DNA from: Flavobacteriales bacterium
GTDB taxonomy: Bacteria; Bacteroidota; Bacteroidia; Flavobacteriales_F; PHOS-HE28
Assembly: GCA_016787985.1 (NCBI GenBank)
Contig: JAEUTC010000043.1
Location: 17,145-81,144, forward strand
Direction: 5' to 3'
Length of the DNA stretch: 64,000 nucleotides
The notes beneath the pieces were generated by a model that made no database searches, was not told the origin of the DNA, and saw only the letters and a program-made list of their open reading frames with translations. Both the position numbers and the translations under genes were made by a program. Shown in pieces: positions 7,197-49,189 of the stretch (position 1 is the first letter of the stretch; each line of letters starts with the position of its first letter).

Positions 7197-8897
7197 ATGA
7201 ACCATACCCTAGCCTTCGCCTGTTGGTGCTCTTGTGCGCTGCCGGTTCACTCTCAAGAACCCTTGGAACACGTTTGGGCCCGGCGTGTGGGCAGCTCGAA
7301 CGAGAACGAGAAGCTCTGGCGTATGGCCGTGGACGAAGCCGGCAATGTCTTTGTAACAGGCTATTTCCGGGGCACCTTCGCAGAACAAGGTGTTTCGGTC
7401 ACCAGCGTAGGCGGCGCCGATGTACTCCTGCTGAAGTATTCATCACAAGGTGAACTACTGTGGGCCCGGTCGGCTGGTGGCCCACTTGGAGATGGTGCCT
7501 ATGGCATCGATACGGACAAGGATGGGAACGTGTACATTACGGGAACCTTCTCTGGGCTGGCCGTTTTCGGCGATACATTACTCGCTGTGAGCCATCCAGA
7601 GGAGATCGAGTTACCGTTCAGTTTCGTGGCCCGATACTCCTCATCCGGCGAGTTGGCTTGGGTGCGCGCGATGGAGGCAGAAATGGTAGCGGGTAGTTAT
7701 CCCTTTGGACAGAGCTATGCCGTGCGTGTAGGACCCGGTGGCGACCTGATCATTTGCGGCACCTACGCCTCAACTGATGCATCCGCCGGCAACCCTGCGT
7801 TAAGCACGCTCACCTTCGGAGGACAGCCGTTCAGGACATGCGGTCTTCCTTACGAATCGACCTACGTGATGCGAATGGACACCTTGGGCAACACCGAATG
7901 GGTGCACACCGTAGGTGGTCTTAATGGACAAGGGGTCTTCCAAAGCATCGCCTTCGACACGGGGGGTAACATCTGGGTGGGCGGGAACGTCGTTTCCAAC
8001 GCGGGATCCCCGTACGTGGATGGACCGGTGAACCTGGGCACGAGCGCCACGACGACCTACACCGGCGGGGTGATGCGGCTTAGCGGATCCGGTGATCCGA
8101 TCAGCGGCTTCCTGCTTTCGAGCACCAACACCAGCAACGTGGAGGACCTCATCGTTGCTGGGAATGGCGATATCTACCTCAGTGGCTGGCACCGAGGTTC
8201 GCTGTTCGCTTCGCCCTCAGCCACACAAGTGGATGGTTTCCTGATGCGTGTTTCCAACACCGGCTCACCCATCTGGACCAAGCGGCTCACGGGCCCTGGC
8301 AGCGACTTCTTCAGCGGTATAGCCACCACCACTGAACCCAACGAATTGGTAGGTGGCGCTTATTACTTCTTCGATGCGGACCTGGAAGGCGCCGACTTAG
8401 CCGCCAGCCCAGGGAATACGAGTGCGTTGGTCCGCCTCGATACCATGGGCACGGTGCTGGAGGTGGTCCAGCCGGAAGTGCTCTCCGGTTACAGCCTGAT
8501 CGCGGATGTGCAAAGCGACCTCTTCGGGAACTTCTACCTCTGTGGTGATGTCGGTGGTGAGGTGCGCTACGGACCCGACACCATCACATGCCTATCCCAA
8601 GACATGTACGTGGCCAAACTTTCGCCGCAACTATCCACCGGGCTAGAGCTGGTGGAGGTCAACGATCGGTCATTGCTGACCGGTTATCCGAATCCGACGG
8701 ATGGGCTCATCCGCATCAATGGTCCCTCTGCTTCAGGTTCATTCGATCTGTTCGATGCACGTGGCACGTTGGTAAGGCGCTTCACACGACCCGGCCAGGA
8801 CCCCGTACTCGACTTAGGCGGCTTGGCCTCCGGTATCTATGTGCTCTCCGATGGGCAGGGAGCGACCACTCGCATCGCACTGGAAGGAACTGATTAG
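7197..8897 (+). CDS. SBBP-repeat beta-propeller protein with T9SS C-terminal sorting domain
   Basis: Signal peptide at MNHTLAFACW... Repeated ...GNVYVTGYF.G.......GG.D..L.KY...G..LWAR... units (SBBP). C-terminal ...GSFDLFDARGTLVRRF...SGIYVL...TTRIAL is a T9SS type A CTD. Confidence 0.75.
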   Translation: MNHTLAFACWCSCALPVHSQEPLEHVWARRVGSSNENEKLWRMAVDEAGNVFVTGYFRGTFAEQGVSVTSVGGADVLLLKYSSQGELLWARSAGGPLGDGAYGIDTDKDGNVYITGTFSGLAVFGDTLLAVSHPEEIELPFSFVARYSSSGELAWVRAMEAEMVAGSYPFGQSYAVRVGPGGDLIICGTYASTDASAGNPALSTLTFGGQPFRTCGLPYESTYVMRMDTLGNTEWVHTVGGLNGQGVFQSIAFDTGGNIWVGGNVVSNAGSPYVDGPVNLGTSATTTYTGGVMRLSGSGDPISGFLLSSTNTSNVEDLIVAGNGDIYLSGWHRGSLFASPSATQVDGFLMRVSNTGSPIWTKRLTGPGSDFFSGIATTTEPNELVGGAYYFFDADLEGADLAASPGNTSALVRLDTMGTVLEVVQPEVLSGYSLIADVQSDLFGNFYLCGDVGGEVRYGPDTITCLSQDMYVAKLSPQLSTGLELVEVNDRSLLTGYPNPTDGLIRINGPSASGSFDLFDARGTLVRRFTRPGQDPVLDLGGLASGIYVLSDGQGATTRIALEGTD

Positions 8898-8952
8898 AAC
8901 CAACTGGTTGGATCCAGCACAATAGCATGCCTCACCGTGCGTTGGGTGCATC

Positions 8953-9276
8953 GTGCTTCGGTTGACCCAAATCCTTTTCACCACTTCGCTCGTCGCCGGC
9001 TTCTGGTTGTGGTGGGTGTTGGACCACGTGGGACACGGTTACCCTCCGGAAGGCGGCTTCCTGCGCTGGTGGCATGACTTGGAGGGGCAGCCCGAGTTCT
9101 ACCTGCTCTTTGTCCAACTCACCTACCCGCTTTATTGGTGGCTGAGCCGCAACGTCAAATGGTCGGCGTTCTGGCGCACCTGGCGGACGGCCCACATGGC
9201 ATTGGTGCTCCTGCTTCTATTGGCTACGGGTCTTATGTGGCTGGCCACGCCGGACCTTGGTGGTCACTGGGGTTGA
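8953..9276 (+). CDS. small W-rich membrane protein, hypothetical
   Basis: Two to three predicted TM helices. Sits in the gap between two large genes. No homology recognised. Confidence 0.3.
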   Translation: MLRLTQILFTTSLVAGFWLWWVLDHVGHGYPPEGGFLRWWHDLEGQPEFYLLFVQLTYPLYWWLSRNVKWSAFWRTWRTAHMALVLLLLLATGLMWLATPDLGGHWG

Positions 9277-9280
9277 ACCG

Positions 9281-12200
9281 TCAGGGGATCACGAAGCGCA
9301 AGGTCTCCGAGCGGCTTTCTCGGCGTAGAATGGCCACATAGACACCGGAAACACCACCGCTGAAATGCCACTGCCCATCGGTTAGTGGACCTGAAGCGAC
9401 AAGCCTGCCATTGTGATCATGCACATGGACCTCCTCCCACCCAGAACCATGCAGCACGACACCATCCCCGGGGATGGGTTGCGCCCACACCTGGGCCGCT
9501 GCGCGGTGCTCGATCGCCACCGGACCATGGTAGGCCACCGTACCATCAAGATCGACCTGCGCCAGCCGGTAATACGAAAGGCCATTCAGCGGTACGGGAT
9601 CAGTGAGGGAATAGTCGATCACCGCCGCGCTGAAACCCGCTGCCGGTAAGCTGCCGATGGTGATGTAGGCGATGCCATCACTCCCGCGTTCTAGTTCGAA
9701 ATGGCTCGTGTTGTGTTCCGTGGCCGTGGTCCAATCCAGGCGCACTGCAGAGACTTCATCCGTGCCGGTGAACGAAAGCAGTTCCACGGGAAGGATACCC
9801 ACGGACTCCCAAACGTAGTCCTCCGTTTCTCCCAGCGGTGCGGCCATGTACGGGAAGGTCACGGCCATGCTATCCACGGAAAGGCGCAGTCGGATGTAGA
9901 ACAGCCCGAAGGGGTTCGCAAAGGGCGGTACGGTGAAATGCATCAGGTGCGAACCCAAGCCGGTGAACGGGGCCTTCACCACCGTGTTGGACGAACTCTC
10001 CAAGGAATCGAGGAAATCACCGTCGGCGTTCCAGTCCACGAAGGCATGGACGAAACTCGCGTTGGCCGTGTTGTTCGTTGCTCGGATCTGTAGATCGAAA
10101 GCCCCGCCTATACCCGGCCATGGCGCCGTGTAGGGATTGGTGAGCAGCGCGTCCTCCTCGTTGCCATCGCCATCGGCCATTACGCTGTTGTGCGCGATGC
10201 TTTCCGCACTGGGGCCTGAAAGACCTAATACAAGACCATTCAGAAGTGTAGAAGCCGCGGCCGGTGGCTGGTAGTTGATATTCATGTCGTACACCACCGG
10301 CGCATCACCATAGTCGTACTGCACGTTGGCGATATCGATCTGGCAACTCACCGTAGCATCGCAGCCGCTGACGCTGAGCGCGGTGAGGCTGATGGCCACG
10401 AAGCCATTGGCCACATCGAGCGGTGTGGGCACATAGGTGAGCGTTGGGCTCGACACGGTTCCGCCACCGGTGATCGACCCGACCGTCGTGCTCGCCCATT
10501 GCACGGTGGCAGCGCCAGTAACGGAGATCCCCCCCAAGGTGATATTCCCACCTGCGTTGATGGCACCCGGGCATGTGAAGTTCGCGATGACCGGGACGGT
10601 AAGTGCAGTAACGCCGTTGGCGTCGCTGGCCGTGTTGCTCAAGCCGCTCGCGTTGATCCCCGTGTGGATATCGGTCACCTGCACGAAAAGGTTCGTAAGG
10701 GTGCTGCCGATGTTGAGGTCCACTTGGAACGTGCTCACCCCTGGTGGTAGCGACAAAATGGGCAACAGTACGGAACCGGAGTGACCGTTGATGGCGTGGG
10801 GTACGAACGGATAAGCCGGATCAAGGAGGTTGGGTGCGGCGAGGTCCAACCCTGCACTCAGGTTGTACGGTTCACCGACGTAAGTGGCACCGAGCCCGAC
10901 CAGGTTCATGTCAAGATCCGCACCGGTGATAGTGGTGCCACTGGTATTGGTGATGGTGATGGTGGCCTGCGCATAGTTGCCATTGCCACAGCTGCCAACG
11001 GTGGGAATATTCACGCTCACGCTTATCCGATCGCCGGTAGCACAAGGGCTGCCAGCAGCAGGGATGACCGCATTGTCGCTGGTATGCACGGCACCGTTGA
11101 AGCCACTGATATCCACGAAGGTGCCCGCGTTGAAGTGCTGGTCGGGCATGATGAGGGGCGCGGGATCGCCCGGGGTGAACACCGAGGCGGCAAGTCCCAT
11201 GCTCAGGTTGTAGGTTCCCGCACCCAACGCGCTGTAATCGTAGATGTACTGGCGCACGAAGCACTCGCCGGGATAGAGGATACGCGGTAGCTCATGCTCG
11301 CCGAACTTGGCCAGGTAGGCATCGTCGTTGTCATTGTTCACCGTTTGGTGTGCACCCGTAGTGGCCAGATCGACCAAGCTGGCGGTGAGCCCTACCACGT
11401 ACACATCCCCTGCTGGATCAACGGCCACGGCATAATTCTCATCATCATCCTCGCCACCGAAATACGTCCCCCAGAGCAAGACACCGTCGTTGCTGAACTT
11501 CATCGCGAACGCATCGCGGTTGGTGCCATCGATGGACTCCTTGAAGGAGCCGAACGTAGAGATGCCCGATACGCTTTTGGTGAAACCAGCTACCGTGACA
11601 CGACCAACGGCGTCCATGGCCACATCGTTCATCACCTCATCATCTTCGCCACTCACGTAGGTGCTCCAAACAGGCGAACCGGTCGCATCGAACTTCGCCA
11701 AGAACCCATCATCGCCGCCATTGCTGAAGGGCTGGTAAGGAGCGTTGATATCGATCACGTCCGTGCTATTCGTAGTACCGTTCAAGAAGATGTTCCCAGA
11801 CGGATCACAGGCCACCGAGGGGAAAGTCTCAACGCCAGTGCCTCCGAAATAGGTAGCCCACTGGCGCACACCCGCGCCATTGAAACGGACGAGGTATACA
11901 TCGTCACTATTGTTGATCGATTGGAACGCGCCGGCCGTTGCGATACCGGTGGTGCTCAACGTCTGCCCCACCAGATGCACGTTACCGGCAGGATCACACG
12001 CCACGTTGGCCAGGTCCTCCGTATCGCTACCGCCGTAGTAGGTCGCCCACTGACGCACACCCGCACTGTTGAACTTCACCAAGAAGTTGTCCCCCAGCCC
12101 ACCGTTCGCCACTTGATGGGCGCCCACCGTGGCGATGCCCGCCCCACTTTCCGTGGTTCCCACGAGGTACACGTTACCCACGGCATCCGTCGTCACCGAA

Positions 12201-44642: not shown

Positions 44643-44870
44643 TCAAGTAGTTGGGTCCTTCGGGGGTTCAGCGGTGTTCGACTTCCGTCCTTCACCGGAC
44701 CCACCCACGATACGGATCCGTTCGAAAAGTGCCGCGCTGGGGTCGGCCACGAAGAGTTGCAGCATGCGCATGAGCATCATCACGAATTTCACACTTCCCA
44801 CCACTTCGGCACGCAAGTGCTCGGGCGGTTGGTCGGTGGACCGGATCAGCTTGAACGGATTCTCGCTCAT
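44643..44870 (-). CDS. small protein directly downstream of an ECF sigma factor (4-nt overlap); candidate anti-sigma factor
   Basis: ATGA overlap with the sigma gene stop. 75 aa with one hydrophobic segment. Position is typical of cognate anti-sigma. No motif support. Confidence 0.3.
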   Translation of the reverse strand: MSENPFKLIRSTDQPPEHLRAEVVGSVKFVMMLMRMLQLFVADPSAALFERIRIVGGSGEGRKSNTAEPPKDPTT

Positions 44871-45454
44871 GGCTCTTCCGGGAATAAGACGTGATACTTC
44901 GCCAACGCTCGCTCCCGCGCCCGCATGGAGCGCATCTTCACGGCGCTTTCGGAAAGGGCCAGGACATCCATCATGTCCTTCACGGACAATTCATCCTGGT
45001 ACTTCATCAGCAGAATGCCGCGGTCCGCAGGTTCCAAGACATCAAGAACCTTGGCCAGGCGGTCCGCCCGAAGGGAGAGCAGCTCGGCTTCATAGCGTTC
45101 ATCGGCTCCATCATCGATGCGCTCGTCGTCGTCCAACTCGGAGGTCCGCTGCTTTTGGTCCTTGCGCAGATGGTCAAGGCAATAGTTGTAGGTGATGCTG
45201 TACAACCACGTCCCGAAACGACTGCGGTGGTCGAACTTCGTCAGGTTCACGAACGCCTTCAGGAAGATGTCGTGCGTAAGGTCCTGCGCTAGTTCCTTGT
45301 TCCGCGTCATGCTCACGCATTTCTGGAATACCTTGCTCGAGTAGCGGTCGTACAGGATCCCGAAACGGTCCGCGTCCATGTCCCGCTGAAGCTCCGCCAC
45401 GAGGTCCTCGTCGCTAAGCTGGCTGACCGGCTTGGCCTTCTTCCTGAACAACAC
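44867..45454 (-). CDS. RNA polymerase sigma-70 factor, ECF subfamily
   Basis: Region 2 (...DLTHDIFLKAF...FGTWLYSITYNYCLDHLRK...) and region 4 (...LSVKDMMDVLALSESAVKMRSMRARERL...). Confidence 0.85.
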   Translation of the reverse strand: MLFRKKAKPVSQLSDEDLVAELQRDMDADRFGILYDRYSSKVFQKCVSMTRNKELAQDLTHDIFLKAFVNLTKFDHRSRFGTWLYSITYNYCLDHLRKDQKQRTSELDDDERIDDGADERYEAELLSLRADRLAKVLDVLEPADRGILLMKYQDELSVKDMMDVLALSESAVKMRSMRARERALAKYHVLFPEEP

Positions 45455-46165
45455 TTGGGGAGAGCGTATTCGCCGTTTGGACGTGGAGCGGTGAAAAGGT
45501 CACATACGTCGGATCGGAAGCCTGAAAGAAGGCTGAAGGACGCTGCTTATTGATGAGGATGCCGACCGGTGTGTACCCATGGTGCTACGACGCGAAGCCA
45601 CCTGGGAGAGGCGCTGGCTGATAAAGACACTCAAGCCACCTTGATTGACCCGACTAAAGTCAGTTCACAAAGCACGAGCTTGTTGTGCCTCTTGGCGCGA
45701 AAGTACAGCAGACCACTAAATCGCTGCTACCTTGCAATGAAACGCCATTTTGACATCACAATGCACTACCTACTCACAACTAAGTGGTATCCCAGAGCTC
45801 TAGGTTGCGCCATTATGTCATTTGACCAGCGCTCCAACAGCCTTCCTCTCTACAAGATACGACGTCCTACCCACACCTGAGTTATGAACGACTTGCTGTT
45901 CCATGACAATACCCACTCTTGAATCAAAGAATCCATCATTTGACTGATTATCTGACACTTATATCCTCCTCTACTGCCCACATACAACACAACCGGTCAA
46001 GTTAGTTATTAAGGGGTCCTCATTCTGACACGGTATTTGGATGTAACATTGTGCAGCACACCAGATTGTTGATAACATGTTGACAAGAAAACGCACAGAG
46101 GGTAGATTTGGCAAATATTTGGAGGCGTCCAGCAGAAGGTCTTCGACTAATGAACTCTAAGGCCG

Positions 46166-46396
46166 ATGAATCCAATTGAACTAGCAGACCTCATTAGGCA
46201 GTACTCGACTAATGCCAAGGTCAATCGTGAGAACTACGAGGCTGAGTTGCTTCGCATTGTTCAGGACGAGAATCAATTCAACGAACGCGTAATCAACCTT
46301 CATCGCGAGCGTGAACGAATGGAGGAAGAAGCAGAAGCCAATCGCTCATTCGATCCTGAAGTACTTCGTGTTGTGATATCTTATAAGGCCCGTTGA
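46166..46396 (+). CDS. small charged alpha-helical protein (76 aa), hypothetical; first gene of AT-rich island
   Basis: AT-rich codon usage distinct from the host. Predicted coiled-coil-like E/R-rich sequence. Confidence 0.4.
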   Translation: MNPIELADLIRQYSTNAKVNRENYEAELLRIVQDENQFNERVINLHRERERMEEEAEANRSFDPEVLRVVISYKAR

Positions 46397-46417
46397 GTTC
46401 TACGCTCAACGCTAATA

Positions 46418-48013
46418 ATGACATCAAGTTCTTCCTGGTCTCACTACATCTGCCCAGAAGCTCAGAGTCCAAGTGAGTGGATTCTTGAGACTCTAGTCAA
46501 AATTGCAAGGAAACGCTTTCCCAGCTATAAGTACAAGGACTTAAAGAGAGATGCCCATCTCGGTTACTTCGCGGACTACTTCTCAAGTCAATCTAGGTTC
46601 ATCGCGGCAACAATCATATGTGAGCACGAATATCACAGTGTGAGCTATGCGAGTGACTATTCGAGGTATTATAGTCAAGCGCATCGCAACATTGAGAAGA
46701 AAGTTGCTCGGATTCACTTCTTCTCAGAACGTCTTCCTCGTAAAACTATAATTGATTCGTTAGGTACAGCAAATTTTAAAACGTACGTCGCAGAGAATTA
46801 TCTTGGTCATATAACGCTGAAGCCCATTCTAAACTCACTTGTAGGAGCCTCTATAGTCAAGACATACCCACAAACGAAAGCCAGATTTTTTTCCGTTGTA
46901 CGGAACTATACCGTCAATCTCTTTGGAGAAGACATTAATTTAAAATCACTTGTATTCCAACAACAAGATGGCGCGGTAAGCGCATGTGCCACTGCTGCAC
47001 TATGGATGGCCTTCCACAAAACACATCTTGATTTCAGACATGCACTGCATACACCTCACGAAATCACATCACTAGCAGGCTATGGGGACGGTGTTGGTCG
47101 AAACTTTCCCAGCACAGGACTTGATGTAAACCAAATTATTTCCGCAATAGCTGCCCATGGCCTCGACCCTGAGTTGCGCACTCGAAACAAGTTTAAGACT
47201 ACATATCTGAAAGACGACCAACTCGTCACAGAGTCGGTGCTTGAACCCATTTTCCTAAAACGATTCGCATATTCATACCTATCAGCTCAAATACCAGTGC
47301 TACTTGGCTTCAACTATGGTACTGCGTATCACCTAGTCACACTAAACGGATACCGTTTTGTTGATGACGAGAAAGAAATTATGTCCTTGAATCATGTCAA
47401 AGACGACCATCCAATGATAGCTGATTATTTATGCCGACTTTATTGTCATGATGATCAAATTGGCCCTTTCGCTCGAATTGGTTTTCCTCAGTATTTTCCG
47501 AATGCAATTTCTTTCATGCAGGAAAGCAAAATAGCTTACCCCAGAGTTTTGATTGTGCCTTTGCAAACTAGTATAAGAGTGAATTATAATGACATTAGCG
47601 ATGTAGTGCGATGGACACATCTTCAATATAAAGTGCCGGGGCAGCCAACGCCATATATATGGGATATTAGACTCCTCCGCAGTAATGACTACAAAAGGAC
47701 AGCATGCCGCAATCGAGGAATTTTACCATCGATTCGAGAAAAAATCGTAACCGCCTCATTGCCTAAATATGTTTGGGTTGCCTCCCAATACGCTGCGACA
47801 GATTTGCAACACCCTCTAATGGACATGGTATTTGATTCAACTGGCACTCGTGGTGCCTTCTGTTGTGACATGATTCATTTCTATAGTCCTGCCCAAGCAA
47901 ATCTGGCTCGAAGAGTATTTGAACAGGTACTAGCAAGTAGTAAGGATGACTACCCCGACTTTTATGCAGACATGATCGTCGAGTCCGCAACGAAACACCT
48001 TGCAAACACATGA
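46418..48013 (+). CDS. hypothetical 531-aa protein with central C39/papain-like cysteine peptidase signature
   Basis: ...VFQQQDGAVSACATAALWMAF... (Gln-then-Cys motif resembling C39 Q..DCG.A.L.M) and downstream ...GTAYHLVTLNGYRFVDDE (His then Asp). N- and C-terminal extensions are unrecognised. AT-rich codons. Confidence 0.55.
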   Translation: MTSSSSWSHYICPEAQSPSEWILETLVKIARKRFPSYKYKDLKRDAHLGYFADYFSSQSRFIAATIICEHEYHSVSYASDYSRYYSQAHRNIEKKVARIHFFSERLPRKTIIDSLGTANFKTYVAENYLGHITLKPILNSLVGASIVKTYPQTKARFFSVVRNYTVNLFGEDINLKSLVFQQQDGAVSACATAALWMAFHKTHLDFRHALHTPHEITSLAGYGDGVGRNFPSTGLDVNQIISAIAAHGLDPELRTRNKFKTTYLKDDQLVTESVLEPIFLKRFAYSYLSAQIPVLLGFNYGTAYHLVTLNGYRFVDDEKEIMSLNHVKDDHPMIADYLCRLYCHDDQIGPFARIGFPQYFPNAISFMQESKIAYPRVLIVPLQTSIRVNYNDISDVVRWTHLQYKVPGQPTPYIWDIRLLRSNDYKRTACRNRGILPSIREKIVTASLPKYVWVASQYAATDLQHPLMDMVFDSTGTRGAFCCDMIHFYSPAQANLARRVFEQVLASSKDDYPDFYADMIVESATKHLANT

Positions 48014-48732
48014 ACTACCTGGCAAAATATCAAGGAGCAACCAAATCATGGGTGCATGAGCCCGTATCAAATGAAAGACTAGTTGAAGACCTACCTGAGT
48101 TGCTGAGTAAGGTGAATAGAGACCTCGACTTTGTCTGTATGTTCAATGGTGGTGATTGGAGTGAGCTCAATTTAGTGCTTCAGAATCCAGAGTTTCAAAA
48201 GGAGCTGCATGAAATAAGCAAGAATAAAGTTCTCTTTGTTCATCTCGTTATGAAAGGCCGAAATGATACTGGAGAGCGATTCGGCGATTTGGCACAAATC
48301 GAATTCGGCGATGACAGTAGAGCCGAATTTTGGCGAGCCTTTCTGGCGAAGAATTTTAAAGATCGGGCAGGTTCTTACATAGAGGAAATGTCTGACCTTC
48401 TAAGCAGGCCGTCAATCGCAATTTTTCGATTGTTCCGTAACTTGGATTCTAACGAAGCTCAGAGTATTGAAGATGCATTTGTACAGCCATTAATGCCAGT
48501 TTCGCGGGCAGCATACGAGAGAGACCCACTTAAGGTAGACGACATTTATGAATCCACTCTGGAGTACTTCAAGCTCATTAATGATCAAATCATTAGTGAC
48601 CAGCAACATTGGCAGGACATGAAAAAAAGAGAAGATATGCGCACATGGCTGGAGCCCCTAATCAAGAACACCCCAAAGGGGGTAAGTCTCTCAAAAATAA
48701 TTGTAATGAGCGCTTCTCAGTTCTTTGGATAA
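48010..48732 (+). CDS. hypothetical 240-aa protein, translationally coupled (ATGA overlap) to the peptidase-like gene
   Basis: 4-nt overlap. AT-rich codon usage. No domain recognised. Confidence 0.5.
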   Translation: MNYLAKYQGATKSWVHEPVSNERLVEDLPELLSKVNRDLDFVCMFNGGDWSELNLVLQNPEFQKELHEISKNKVLFVHLVMKGRNDTGERFGDLAQIEFGDDSRAEFWRAFLAKNFKDRAGSYIEEMSDLLSRPSIAIFRLFRNLDSNEAQSIEDAFVQPLMPVSRAAYERDPLKVDDIYESTLEYFKLINDQIISDQQHWQDMKKREDMRTWLEPLIKNTPKGVSLSKIIVMSASQFFG

Positions 48733-48998
48733 ATGTGAGTACAGGCTTCCTCATTTCTTGGCTGTAAACTTCACAAAGGTTCGGCCAAGTGATAGCCGGG
48801 TGGCCGGAGGGTGCCCCGTTAATCCAAGTCTCATTCAAAAAGGGTACTCAAAACACCACTTTGGAAAGAAGAAAGGTTGTCAAAGAACAACTTTGGCTGA
48901 TTCAGGGTGGACAAGAGTAGAACCAATTGCTAGTTAACTCAATTTATGGCTGTGCGATGTACGTTAATGCATGATGCACACACTAAAAGTAATTCATG

Positions 48999-49073
48999 TG
49001 GGCAATGCCGGATTCGAACCAGCGACCCCTACCTTGTCGAGGTAGTGCTCTGAACCAGCTGAGCTAATTGCCC
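48999..49073 (-). tRNA. tRNA-Val (anticodon GAC)
   Basis: rc = GGGCAATTAGCTCAGCTGGTTCAGAGCACTACCTCGACAAGGTAGGGGTCGCTGGTTCGAATCCGGCATTGCCCA. Perfect 7-bp acceptor, D stem GCTC/GAGC, anticodon stem CTACC/GGTAG with loop TCGACAA (GAC), T arm GCTGG-TTCGAAT-CCGGC. Close to E. coli tRNA-Val(GAC). No encoded CCA. Confidence 0.8.
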
Positions 49074-49189
49074 GTTCCCTGCGGAGGGCGGCAAATATAT
49101 GGTTCTGTGCCGGATTTGCGGCCCCTTGGTCCGATTTCTGATGGTCCGTCCGTGCACATCCTGATCGGGATCAGTCAGGTTGTGGTGCG

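Follow-up and report, generated by a model that had tools for sequence, protein, structure and literature searches.

The window, by which we mean the whole stretch of 64,000 nucleotides analysed, contains an AT-rich island of three genes between a tRNA-Val(GAC) gene and a gene for an ECF sigma factor (Table 1). Windowed GC content falls from 0.57–0.63 outside to 0.39–0.47 within approximately 45600–48950, and the island mean of 0.435 compares with 0.598 ± 0.013 for equal-sized windows elsewhere in the stretch. GC3 is 0.39–0.46 in the three island genes versus 0.68–0.81 in six flanking genes, and both contrasts confirm the original prediction that this DNA is of foreign composition.

Table 1. 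Features of the island and its borders, in window coordinates.
Feature	Coordinates	Strand	Remarks
ECF sigma gene	44867-45454	-	flanks the island on the left
Native sigma upstream region	45455-45619		conserved in L085, the closest relative
Inserted island	45663..48997	none	~3.3 kb, 43.5% GC; left edge uncertain by ~40 bp (45620-45662)
Non-coding leader of the island	45663..46165	+	~500 bp
Small partner gene	46166-46396	+	76 aa; upstream of the peptidase gene
Tail motif of the partner	46349..46384	+	F62-D-P-E-V-L-R-V-V-I-S-Y73, then the 3-residue extension K-A-R
Peptidase gene	46418-48013	+	531 aa; middle of the three-gene cassette
Codon Q183	46964-46966	+	key peptidase residue
Codon C190	46985-46987	+	key peptidase residue
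Codon H305	47330-47332	+	key peptidase residue
Codons D345-D346	47450-47455	+	key peptidase residues
Third gene	48010-48732	+	240 aa; ATGA overlap with the peptidase gene, translationally coupled
Non-coding right end of the island	48733..48997	none	43% GC
tRNA-Val(GAC)	48998-49073	-	intact, 3' end is the insertion point; ARAGORN; Rfam RF00005, 64.6 bits

The island is foreign DNA inserted at the 3' end of the tRNA-Val gene. Synteny with L085 (84% nucleotide identity) breaks at 48998, coinciding with the last base of the tRNA, and picks up again at approximately 45619–45662, the two syntenic blocks in L085 being separated by only 42 bp where the window has the island. Nineteen related loci without the island bear out the insertion site that had been proposed: the distance between the tRNA-Val(GAC) and this ECF sigma gene is 124–645 bp in them and 3543 bp in the window. 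The left boundary was originally placed at 45455, directly beside the sigma gene, but moves to the interval given in Table 1 since the intervening segment is conserved in L085. Because this segment is the native sigma upstream region, the leader belonging to the island itself is about 500 bp long, and not the approximately 700 bp of non-coding sequence first described. The sigma gene was also considered as an island gene and rejected, relatives without the island carrying it too.

The non-coding ends of the island contain no convincing RNA genes, and the leader has neither an ORF of at least 60 aa wholly inside it nor a match in Rfam. A sigma-70-like promoter match (TTGACA-17-TAGATT, 46080–46108) is one of five such matches, a count no higher than expected by chance. 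Right at the left junction, the tRNA 3' end may be repeated in degenerate form (45663–45677), a weak resemblance (10/15 identical) that is not significant alone, and a repeat finder reported no att repeats in the island ends. The island has only three ORFs of at least 60 aa, none with a recombinase match, and it is, as originally noted, devoid of an integrase; the locus is a clean case of DNA inserted at the 3' end of a tRNA gene without an integrase of its own.

The three ORFs have the coordinates and the translational coupling first described, and the order of small gene, peptidase gene and coupled gene of about 240 codons recurs in all seven members of the clade to which the window belongs. 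None of the three window proteins has a credible match in Pfam, NCBIfam, PADLOC or PHROGs; PADLOC-DB v2.0.0 likewise has none for ten proteins from related loci, and the literature on C39-like, papain-like and PF13529 defence or toxin-antitoxin systems yielded no description of such a system, in agreement with the earlier view that the cassette matches no named system. No signal peptide or transmembrane segment was seen in the cassette proteins, and the module is therefore taken to act in the cytoplasm.

The peptidase and the third gene

In an AlphaFold model the 531-aa protein has a papain fold, with an N-terminal helix bearing the nucleophile Cys packed on a β-sheet lobe that carries the His, and its top structural neighbour is staphopain (C47). 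Residues Q183, C190, H305 and D345/D346 do not vary among 54 database homologs and are conserved in 81–82 of 82 loci, the search pattern itself having included H-D-D. Residues Y72, R98, H100 and Y128 make up a further invariant surface. The Cys and His were correctly numbered in the original prediction and are invariant in both the homologs and the loci, and the papain-like Cys-His enzyme that it proposed is recovered in both the modelled fold and the conserved catalytic residues. The acidic pair, previously read as the DD at 317–318 beside the His, is instead D345-D346, within a conserved H-D-D-Q-I-G-P motif. The enzyme is thus predicted to be a clan CA papain-fold Cys peptidase with an intact Gln-Cys-His-Asp set, to which are added an N-terminal domain (approximately residues 1–180) and a C-terminal domain (approximately 370–531) without recognised folds.

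The deposited NCBI gene model for this protein is 457 aa long; the annotation is corrected to the 531-aa start, which is backed by the alignment of homologs as well as by the AlphaFold model. The longer product has a maximum 19-residue hydropathy of 1.24 and its N-terminus is not hydrophobic. A PDB sequence-profile search with it found no related chain, and the BFVD viral structure library gave no significant match. The peptidase family with its two new flanking domains is newly defined here.

The suggestion that this is a C39-type bacteriocin-processing peptidase is correct as to fold and clan but no further. The window peptidase has no Pfam C39 match at E ≤ 1 (PF03412, PF13529), and the island encodes neither an ABC transporter nor a double-glycine peptide, two absences that had been remarked upon from the start. 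Four of the 54 relatives match PF13529 weakly (best E 0.0028), and one distant plasmid relative scores 24.7 bits against a C39-type Pfam profile with a cut-off of 24.

The 240-aa protein finds only itself in word-indexed and exhaustive phmmer searches of 5.8 billion and 1.84 billion sequences. Its gene has a coding-like base pattern (GC1 > GC3 > GC2), and the single-sequence AlphaFold model of the protein is unusable (pLDDT 39). A coupled third gene of 221–259 codons, hyperdivergent in sequence, is found in 7/7 members of the window's clade. BLAST, phmmer and jackhmmer comparisons among these downstream genes link only L001 with L172 and L011 with L174, plus the window weakly with L171; the latter two proteins have a pairwise E value of 3e-4 and weak collinear similarity, and hhalign of the third proteins also gives a weak collinear signal (P 0.001–0.02 versus 0.04–0.9 for controls). 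The coupled partner described earlier is confirmed throughout the clade, but the 240-aa protein is clade-specific and lies outside the universal core. Components caught up in arms races typically show hypervariability of this kind.

The small partner and its C-terminal tail

The 76-aa protein is acidic, has no transmembrane segment and is probably helical, judging from its sequence. It had been regarded as a generic helical protein and is instead a conserved partner with a C-terminal tail motif. At nearly every locus a gene of 50–90 codons lies 0–30 nt upstream of the peptidase gene (one was picked at 74 of 82); the median gap is approximately 15 nt, 56 of 64 do not exceed 36 nt, and the gene is present even in the distant 720-aa relatives on plasmids. 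The small gene encodes the obligate partner of the peptidase family, a protein of approximately 55–75 aa. The partner family, now defined, is often missed by gene callers or labelled hypothetical.

The window partner can be aligned to 57 of its counterparts at other loci. The partners have one conserved feature only, a 12-residue tail, normally at the free C-terminus and closing with hydrophobic-x-hydrophobic-COOH, for which the family consensus is [IV]-[DS]-x-[ED]-x-L-x-x-x-hydrophobic-[TS]-hydrophobic-COOH. In most partners the motif finishes at the stop codon, usually with nothing after it, and the last residues are Ile, Val, Leu or Arg. When a position matrix built on the last 14 residues was applied with leave-one-out scoring against a background of 3775 other ORF C-termini, 53 of 72 partners exceeded the 99th percentile of the background, with the window partner scoring 8.5 against a threshold of 4.1. 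The window partner carries three residues beyond the motif, and its nearest relative, L171, ends in ...IKISY followed by RLDS; these three to four extra residues past ...I-S-Y are a hint that the partner might be trimmed by its peptidase.

Basic partner tails co-vary with acidic residues in the peptidase, at positions 236 and 336 (p 2e-6 to 2e-4), a correlation that is confounded by phylogeny and serves as a lead only.

Profile libraries contain no family matching the window partner, and neither it nor 58 partners match the HTH, RHH or AbrB families. A profile search with 58 partner sequences against 5.8 billion sequences returned only two matches, because proteins this short cannot reach significance in a collection of that size. 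We found no natural partner-peptidase fusions or stop-codon read-through, and the relative reading frames of the two genes (26/21/17) show no bias to a shared frame. No Gly-Gly occurs in the partner proteins.

Distribution and proposed function

The peptidase family occurs patchily in at least 241 species from many bacterial phyla and archaea; it is carried on four plasmids, and phage genomes contain essentially no members. The 145 immediate neighbours from 80 loci are heterogeneous apart from recurrent genes of conflict or mobility, namely caspase C14 (7/145), CHAT (2), integrases, restriction-modification genes, HamB-like helicases and transposases, with Bub operons seen twice. Enrichment of defence genes among the neighbours is modest and many of them are housekeeping genes. 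No ABC transporter was found in the island or among the 25 commonest Pfam families of these neighbours, and a tRNA or tmRNA lies within approximately 500 bp at 5 of 60 other loci. Heterogeneous neighbours are as expected for an autonomous cassette.

We infer from architecture and context a defence or toxin-immunity function, with physical interaction, inhibition, toxicity and a defence role all putative, and our tentative preference, held at somewhat less than an even chance, is that the island is a horizontally mobile conflict module in which the peptidase is controlled via the C-terminal tail of its partner. The effector would be the cytoplasmic multi-domain Cys peptidase. We conjecture that the tail docks in it as an extended strand, which might plug the substrate groove like a product or occupy a pocket for a free C-terminus, and that docking would hold the enzyme inactive in the manner of an antitoxin, or would direct it. 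The peptidase would then be released by some trigger, for instance phage infection or the disappearance of its labile partner, and would cut proteins of the cell or of the virus, and in the window's clade the third protein may be a specificity, sensor or immunity component. A bolder and more doubtful version is that the family is a widespread new immune or addiction system, found in bacteria as well as archaea, in which the peptidase is gated by the free tail of its partner and a hypervariable third subunit senses the invader or sets specificity.

The peptidase could instead cleave an anti-sigma-like or adaptor protein, either the small partner or a neighbour, and thereby free a transcription factor, the outcome being a stress or immune programme rather than toxicity. 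This is prompted by one clade (L009, L012, L013, L019, L050, L025 and probably L173) that has an ECF-like sigma gene (176–186 aa) and a gene of about 96 codons directly upstream of the partner-peptidase pair. The best NCBIfam match of this clade's sigma protein is NF041236 (type III-E CRISPR-associated RpoE-like sigma), with an E value of 2.7e-5, and TIGR02937 is matched at 4.6e-5, although both matches are below the curated cut-offs. At least in that clade, the linkage points to regulation rather than killing. However, it is limited to about seven of approximately 90 loci, and the window island itself carries no sigma gene, the adjacent one being native and present in relatives lacking the island; as an account of the family we consider this unlikely.

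It is similarly improbable, in our estimation, that the enzyme is an accessory peptidase of ordinary physiology, involved in protein turnover, the envelope or nutrient processing and transferred by chance, with the small gene encoding a chaperone or assembly factor. The many housekeeping neighbours in other genomes and the failure of the PADLOC defence models to match would fit such a role, but the patchy phyletic pattern, the plasmid carriage, the island location, the hypervariable third gene and the movement of the cassette as a unit speak against it, and envelope or extracellular roles are unlikely because an export signal is absent.

Peptide maturation of the RiPP or bacteriocin type would cast the small protein as a precursor that the C39-like enzyme processes, a very unlikely arrangement given that ABC transporters, modification enzymes and immunity genes are missing from the island and the other loci, that all the proteins are without export signals, and that the partners contain no Gly-Gly. 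Moreover, conservation at the extreme C-terminus leaves nothing to release in most partners, and their variable N-terminal part is charged and helical, unlike a core peptide. Least credible of all is a tagging or de-tagging system, with the small protein as a ubiquitin- or Pup-like modifier working by way of its free C-terminus and the papain-fold enzyme as ligase, transpeptidase or hydrolase, since neither an E1 nor an ATP-dependent ligase belongs to the module and Bub genes are missing at most loci, the partner ends in none of Gly, Gln or Glu and is a predicted charged helical peptide rather than a β-grasp, and a free carboxylate cannot form the acyl-enzyme for transpeptidation.

If the preferred reading of a tail-controlled conflict module is correct, a protease-based module joins the list of prokaryotic conflict systems. 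The bolder version would amount to a new protease-control logic in such systems and a new trio of gene families without a Pfam, NCBIfam or PADLOC profile. We know of no described counterpart in defence or toxin-antitoxin biology for a small protein acting via its free C-terminus on a papain-fold enzyme. The family is broad and unannotated, and travels as a cassette of just two or three genes.

Comparison with known systems

Proteases of ubiquitin-like proteins (ZUFSP/Mug105, UfSP1/2, Josephin, ATG4) differ in that the partner here is not a β-grasp protein and has no Gly-Gly end, and conjugation machinery is missing from the module. C39 domains such as those of PCAT1 and ComA, and the C39-like domain of HlyB (PF03412, PF13529), act on a double-glycine leader and its cargo, whereas the partner described here is conserved at its own C-terminus and the peptidase has no ABC transporter, either fused or encoded alongside. 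The window enzyme also adds an N-terminal domain of about 180 aa and a C-terminal domain of about 160 aa of unknown fold, and it differs in its Gln-Cys spacing (x6) and in the position of the Asp, 40 residues past the His.

Staphopains are secreted pro-enzymes of approximately 390 aa, and their staphostatin inhibitors are β-barrels of about 105–110 aa encoded downstream of the protease. The partner of the window peptidase is by contrast encoded upstream, has a length of 50–90 aa in the family, and is charged and predicted to be helical, ending in a C-terminal tail. Export signals are lacking here, and the two peptidases share no sequence similarity.

Islands that target tRNA genes resemble this one in their presence or absence at a tRNA 3' end and in their foreign GC content, and differ in that an integrase is absent here. 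The likeness to type II toxin-antitoxin and abortive-infection systems lies in the compact mobile cassette of co-oriented, tightly spaced genes, with the small gene first and 0–30 nt from or overlapping the larger one, and in the patchy distribution and the plasmid and island locations. Type II antitoxins usually carry a DNA-binding domain, whereas the small partner has none that is recognisable, and to our knowledge no papain-fold peptidase of 500–700 aa is found among the known toxins of such systems.

The CalpL-CalpT-CalpS and Craspase-Csx30-Csx31-RpoE switches, in which type III CRISPR systems control a sigma factor by means of a protease, differ in employing a Lon or CHAT protease rather than a papain fold; the modules of this family have no CRISPR or cyclic-oligonucleotide sensor domains, and a sigma gene is missing from the window island and from most family loci. 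The likeness to these switches is that one clade of the family combines an ECF-like sigma factor with a protein of about 96 aa, and that elsewhere the family most often has caspase and CHAT proteases as neighbours.

A mobile, AT-rich cassette at a tRNA-Val gene

Windowed GC content falls from 0.57-0.63 to 0.39-0.47 between ~45600 and ~48950. The island (45663-48997) has a GC content of 0.435 versus 0.598 +/- 0.013 in equal-sized windows elsewhere, ~12 SD lower than the mean, and GC3 is 0.39-0.46 in its three genes as against 0.68-0.81 in six flanking genes, in full agreement with the sharp drop noted in the original prediction. ORF calls recover the same genes as that prediction, including the ATGA overlap, and also as predicted there is no integrase among the ORFs examined; neither convincing repeats nor an Rfam match were found within the island. 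Because the tRNA gene is on the minus strand, its 3' end faces the island.

Coordinates of the island genes, their flanking features, and comparable features at other loci
Feature	Location	Strand	Basis
tRNA-Val(GAC), intact, single	48998-49073	-	ARAGORN + Rfam
Small partner, 76 aa	46166-46396		ORF
Peptidase, 531 aa	46418-48013		ORF
Third gene, 240 aa	48010-48732		ORF, ATGA overlap with peptidase gene
ECF sigma gene	44867-45454	-	ORF
tRNA/tmRNA near module	L025:7697-7992, L028:3882-4237, L032:5242-5418, L067:5178-5262, L027:885-959		
ECF-like sigma + ~96-aa gene pair	L009:4778-5609, L012:4771-5624, L019:4800-5633, L050:4818-5663, L025:3303-4264, L173:2734-3613		

Relatives of the locus were gathered by metagenome search using the neighbouring ECF sigma protein as the query. 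The sigma gene is preceded on its own strand by a tRNA-Val(GAC) gene at a distance of 124-645 bp in 19 related loci with 64-93% protein identity; the gap in the window is 3543 bp. The closest relative, L085, has ~84% DNA identity and is collinear on both flanks, with one aligned block stopping exactly at the final tRNA base, 48998, and the other restarting at ~45619; just 42 bp separate the two blocks in L085, and fine alignment hints at residual similarity up to ~45662. Because the synteny blocks end at 48998 and ~45619-45662, we place the island at ~45663-48997. The tRNA spacing and the break at 48998 thus bear out the proposed insertion at the tRNA-Val 3' end, but not the proposed start at 45455, since 45455 to ~45620 is the native sigma promoter region. 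The ECF sigma gene was considered as part of the element and rejected, as it too is native. At the far junction itself, the minus-strand sequence of 45663-45677 (TCGTGCTTTGTGAAC) shares 10 of 15 positions with the tRNA-Val 3' end (TCCGGCATTGCCCAC), which is not significant; this may be an eroded att repeat.

The reverse complement of 49090-49102, CCATATATTTGCC, includes TATATTTG, which fits the Bacteroidota -7 promoter box, TAnnTTTG; it precedes the tRNA-Val 5' end by ~20 nt. A near copy, GGCAAATATTTGG, precedes the small gene at 46110-46122.

An intact cysteine peptidase with an obligate small partner

The 531-aa protein has no match among Pfam, NCBIfam, PADLOC or PHROGs models and no sequence match in the PDB, and its 76 homologs (23-41% identity) are nearly all unnamed, although one relative is labelled 'C39' by two sources. 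PF13529 matches weakly in 4 of 54 relatives, and a 726-aa plasmid relative barely clears its gathering score. An alignment of 54 sequences has invariant Y72, R98, H100, F102, Y128, G130, G143, G170, Q183, D184, C190, P293, H305, G311, D345, D346, G349, and D473, and these positions are likewise conserved across 80-82 of 82 independent loci, with the HDD conservation being biased because that motif formed part of the search pattern. The AlphaFold2 model built on this alignment is confident (pLDDT 90.9, pTM 0.92), and its structural matches are Staphopain C (score 13.3), a double-glycine C39 protease (11.9), PCAT1 (11.8), ComA (11.7), Alr0975 (11.4), ZUFSP (11.1), the C39-like 3erv (10.8), UfSP2 (10.6), and Streptopain (10.6), each limited to 120-190 of the 531 residues; Foldseek concurs, with weak E-values. 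The parts on either side (~1-180, with five invariant aromatic/basic residues, and ~370-531) have no recognisable structural relatives. The protein is therefore a clan-CA peptidase, catalytically intact by its conserved residues and fold, in a new multi-domain frame and with a distant kinship to the C39-like/staphopain group.

The deposited annotation of the identical protein, JNN32_02285, is 457 aa long and starts 74 codons downstream. The omitted codons (46418-46639) lie within the confident part of the model (pLDDT 91-97 at residues 11-50), and homolog alignments and the modelled N-terminus support the longer form, whose ORF begins 21 nt past the stop codon of the partner gene.

In nearly all loci (80 retrieved, and others) the peptidase gene is preceded, at a distance of 0-30 nt (median gap ~15 nt), by a small ORF of 48-95 aa; our partner-picking rule succeeded in 74 of 82 loci, and four missed partners were recovered later. 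In Pseudomonas aeruginosa and Shewanella baltica, annotated plasmid loci carry the same small CDS. The partners match no known family, a profile search of 5.8 billion proteins having low power at such short length. Their N-terminal parts are variable and charged, many with the sub-motif W-x-x-S-x-E-G, and the last 12 residues conform to [IV]-[DST]-x-[ED]-x-L-x-x-x-[FIVL]-[TSN]-[ILV], followed directly by the stop codon in most. With a leave-one-out position matrix and a background of 3775 C-termini of other ORFs, 53 of 72 partners score above the 99th percentile, and the top 'background' scorers proved to be overlooked partners. The partner is obligate, and its free C-terminal tail is strongly constrained. 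The window tail (F62-DPEVLRVVIS-Y73) aligns with the motif and continues for three residues, KAR; in its nearest relative, L171, IKISY is followed by RLDS.

In Aequorivita antarctica (L053:5575-5760, minus strand) the ORF with the best tail motif (...VEESVLKRKFSV) closely precedes the peptidase gene but on the other strand; it is the sole divergently oriented partner seen. At peptidase residues 236 and 336 (47124-47126 and 47424-47426), both adjoining nearly invariant catalytic-domain motifs, Asp/Glu accompanies basic partner tails (…R-A-R-L, …R-A-G-R; Fisher p 2e-6 to 2e-4, confounded by phylogeny), and a contact site could lie here.

A clade-specific third gene and a scattered distribution

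The 240-aa protein has no relative among 5.8 billion sequences or 1.84 billion representatives, and single-sequence structure prediction gave no usable model. We consider the gene real because it shows the coding-type pattern GC1 > GC3 > GC2 and is coupled by ATGA. Over the peptidase family as a whole the downstream gene is not conserved; the third gene is hypervariable and specific to one clade. In a neighbour-joining peptidase tree the window groups with L171, L001, L172, L174, L011, and L014, and in each of the seven the peptidase stop codon is overlapped, or followed a few nucleotides later, by a third gene of 221-259 aa. These proteins are barely alignable overall, with likeness seen within pairs (L011 and L174; L001 and L172); a 29-residue motif occupies the same place in the window and L171 proteins (pairwise E 3e-4). 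Across groups, hhalign gives long collinear alignments with P 0.0013-0.018 versus 0.04-0.9 in unrelated controls. Homology is likely by these alignments, and we read the third genes as a single positional family under extremely rapid evolution.

When one genome per species was scanned, the peptidase family was found in 241 species, including Bacteroidota, Acidobacteriota, Planctomycetota, Pseudomonadota, Nitrospirota, Zixibacteria, Armatimonadota, methanogens, and Thermoplasmatales. Four copies of the module are on plasmids, GenBank phages yielded none, and IMG/VR has it on 4 of 2.9 million contigs; conjugation genes and transposases occur in the vicinity of module loci. A tRNA or tmRNA lies within ~500 bp in 5 of 60 other loci with no integrase in view, and the cassette therefore seems to be repeatedly located at tRNA-type hot spots. 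None of the four libraries (Pfam, NCBIfam, PADLOC, PHROGs) contains a profile for the family, for either extra domain, for the tail-bearing partner or for the three-gene architecture of the clade, and the literature searched, with incomplete coverage, yielded no published description of family or cassette; the peptidase fold is already known.

Possible roles of the cassette

The module is cytoplasmic, with no TM or signal-like segments in any of the three proteins. Its immediate neighbours are heterogeneous (118 Pfam families over 145 proteins), and recurrence is limited to caspase C14 (7), CHAT (2), integrase (2), N6 methylase/type IIG RM (2), and HamB-like DEAD helicase-caspase fusions in Hymenobacter. 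Our leading, albeit tentative, reading is a conflict module of toxin-antitoxin-like or abortive infection type.

In Hymenobacter (L003:3745-5526 and 7690-10746; also L073 and L084) the flanking genes encode a 593-aa caspase-like (C14) protein and a ~1017-aa protein in which a caspase domain is fused to a DEAD/Hachiman-HamB-like helicase, an unusual combination per se. Complete Bub-type (ubiquitination-like) operons (Multi_ubiq, ThiF E1, E2-like, BubE/DUF6527) adjoin the module in two unrelated loci, on P. aeruginosa plasmid p4782_002 (L165:1788-4136) and at L173:137-2589, which could reflect defence-island clustering or a functional link.

In one clade an ECF-like sigma factor (176-186 aa), which matches the type III-E CRISPR-associated RpoE-like sigma best but scores below the cut-off, and a ~96-aa protein assigned to no family are encoded directly upstream of the partner. 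This suggests a protease/anti-sigma/sigma circuit in that clade; we think it unlikely that the cassette is a proteolytic transcription switch, and equally doubtful that the peptidase is an ordinary accessory enzyme. The original prediction of a C39-type peptidase stands as to distant kinship and conserved catalytic residues, but the profile match, ABC exporter, and double-glycine substrate that define bacteriocin-processing C39 peptidases are absent, and a peptide-maturation system is highly improbable. A tagging system is more improbable still.

For a conflict module, we propose that the partner tail binds the peptidase, either in a carboxylate-binding pocket made by the invariant Tyr/Arg/His or, in the manner of a cleavage product, in the substrate groove, and that in both modes the enzyme would stay off until a trigger removes the tail. 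The KAR and RLDS extensions hint that the partner may undergo self-trimming. A tail lying in the groove would be comparable in principle to inhibition by staphostatins or pro-peptides, and to leader recognition by C39 domains.
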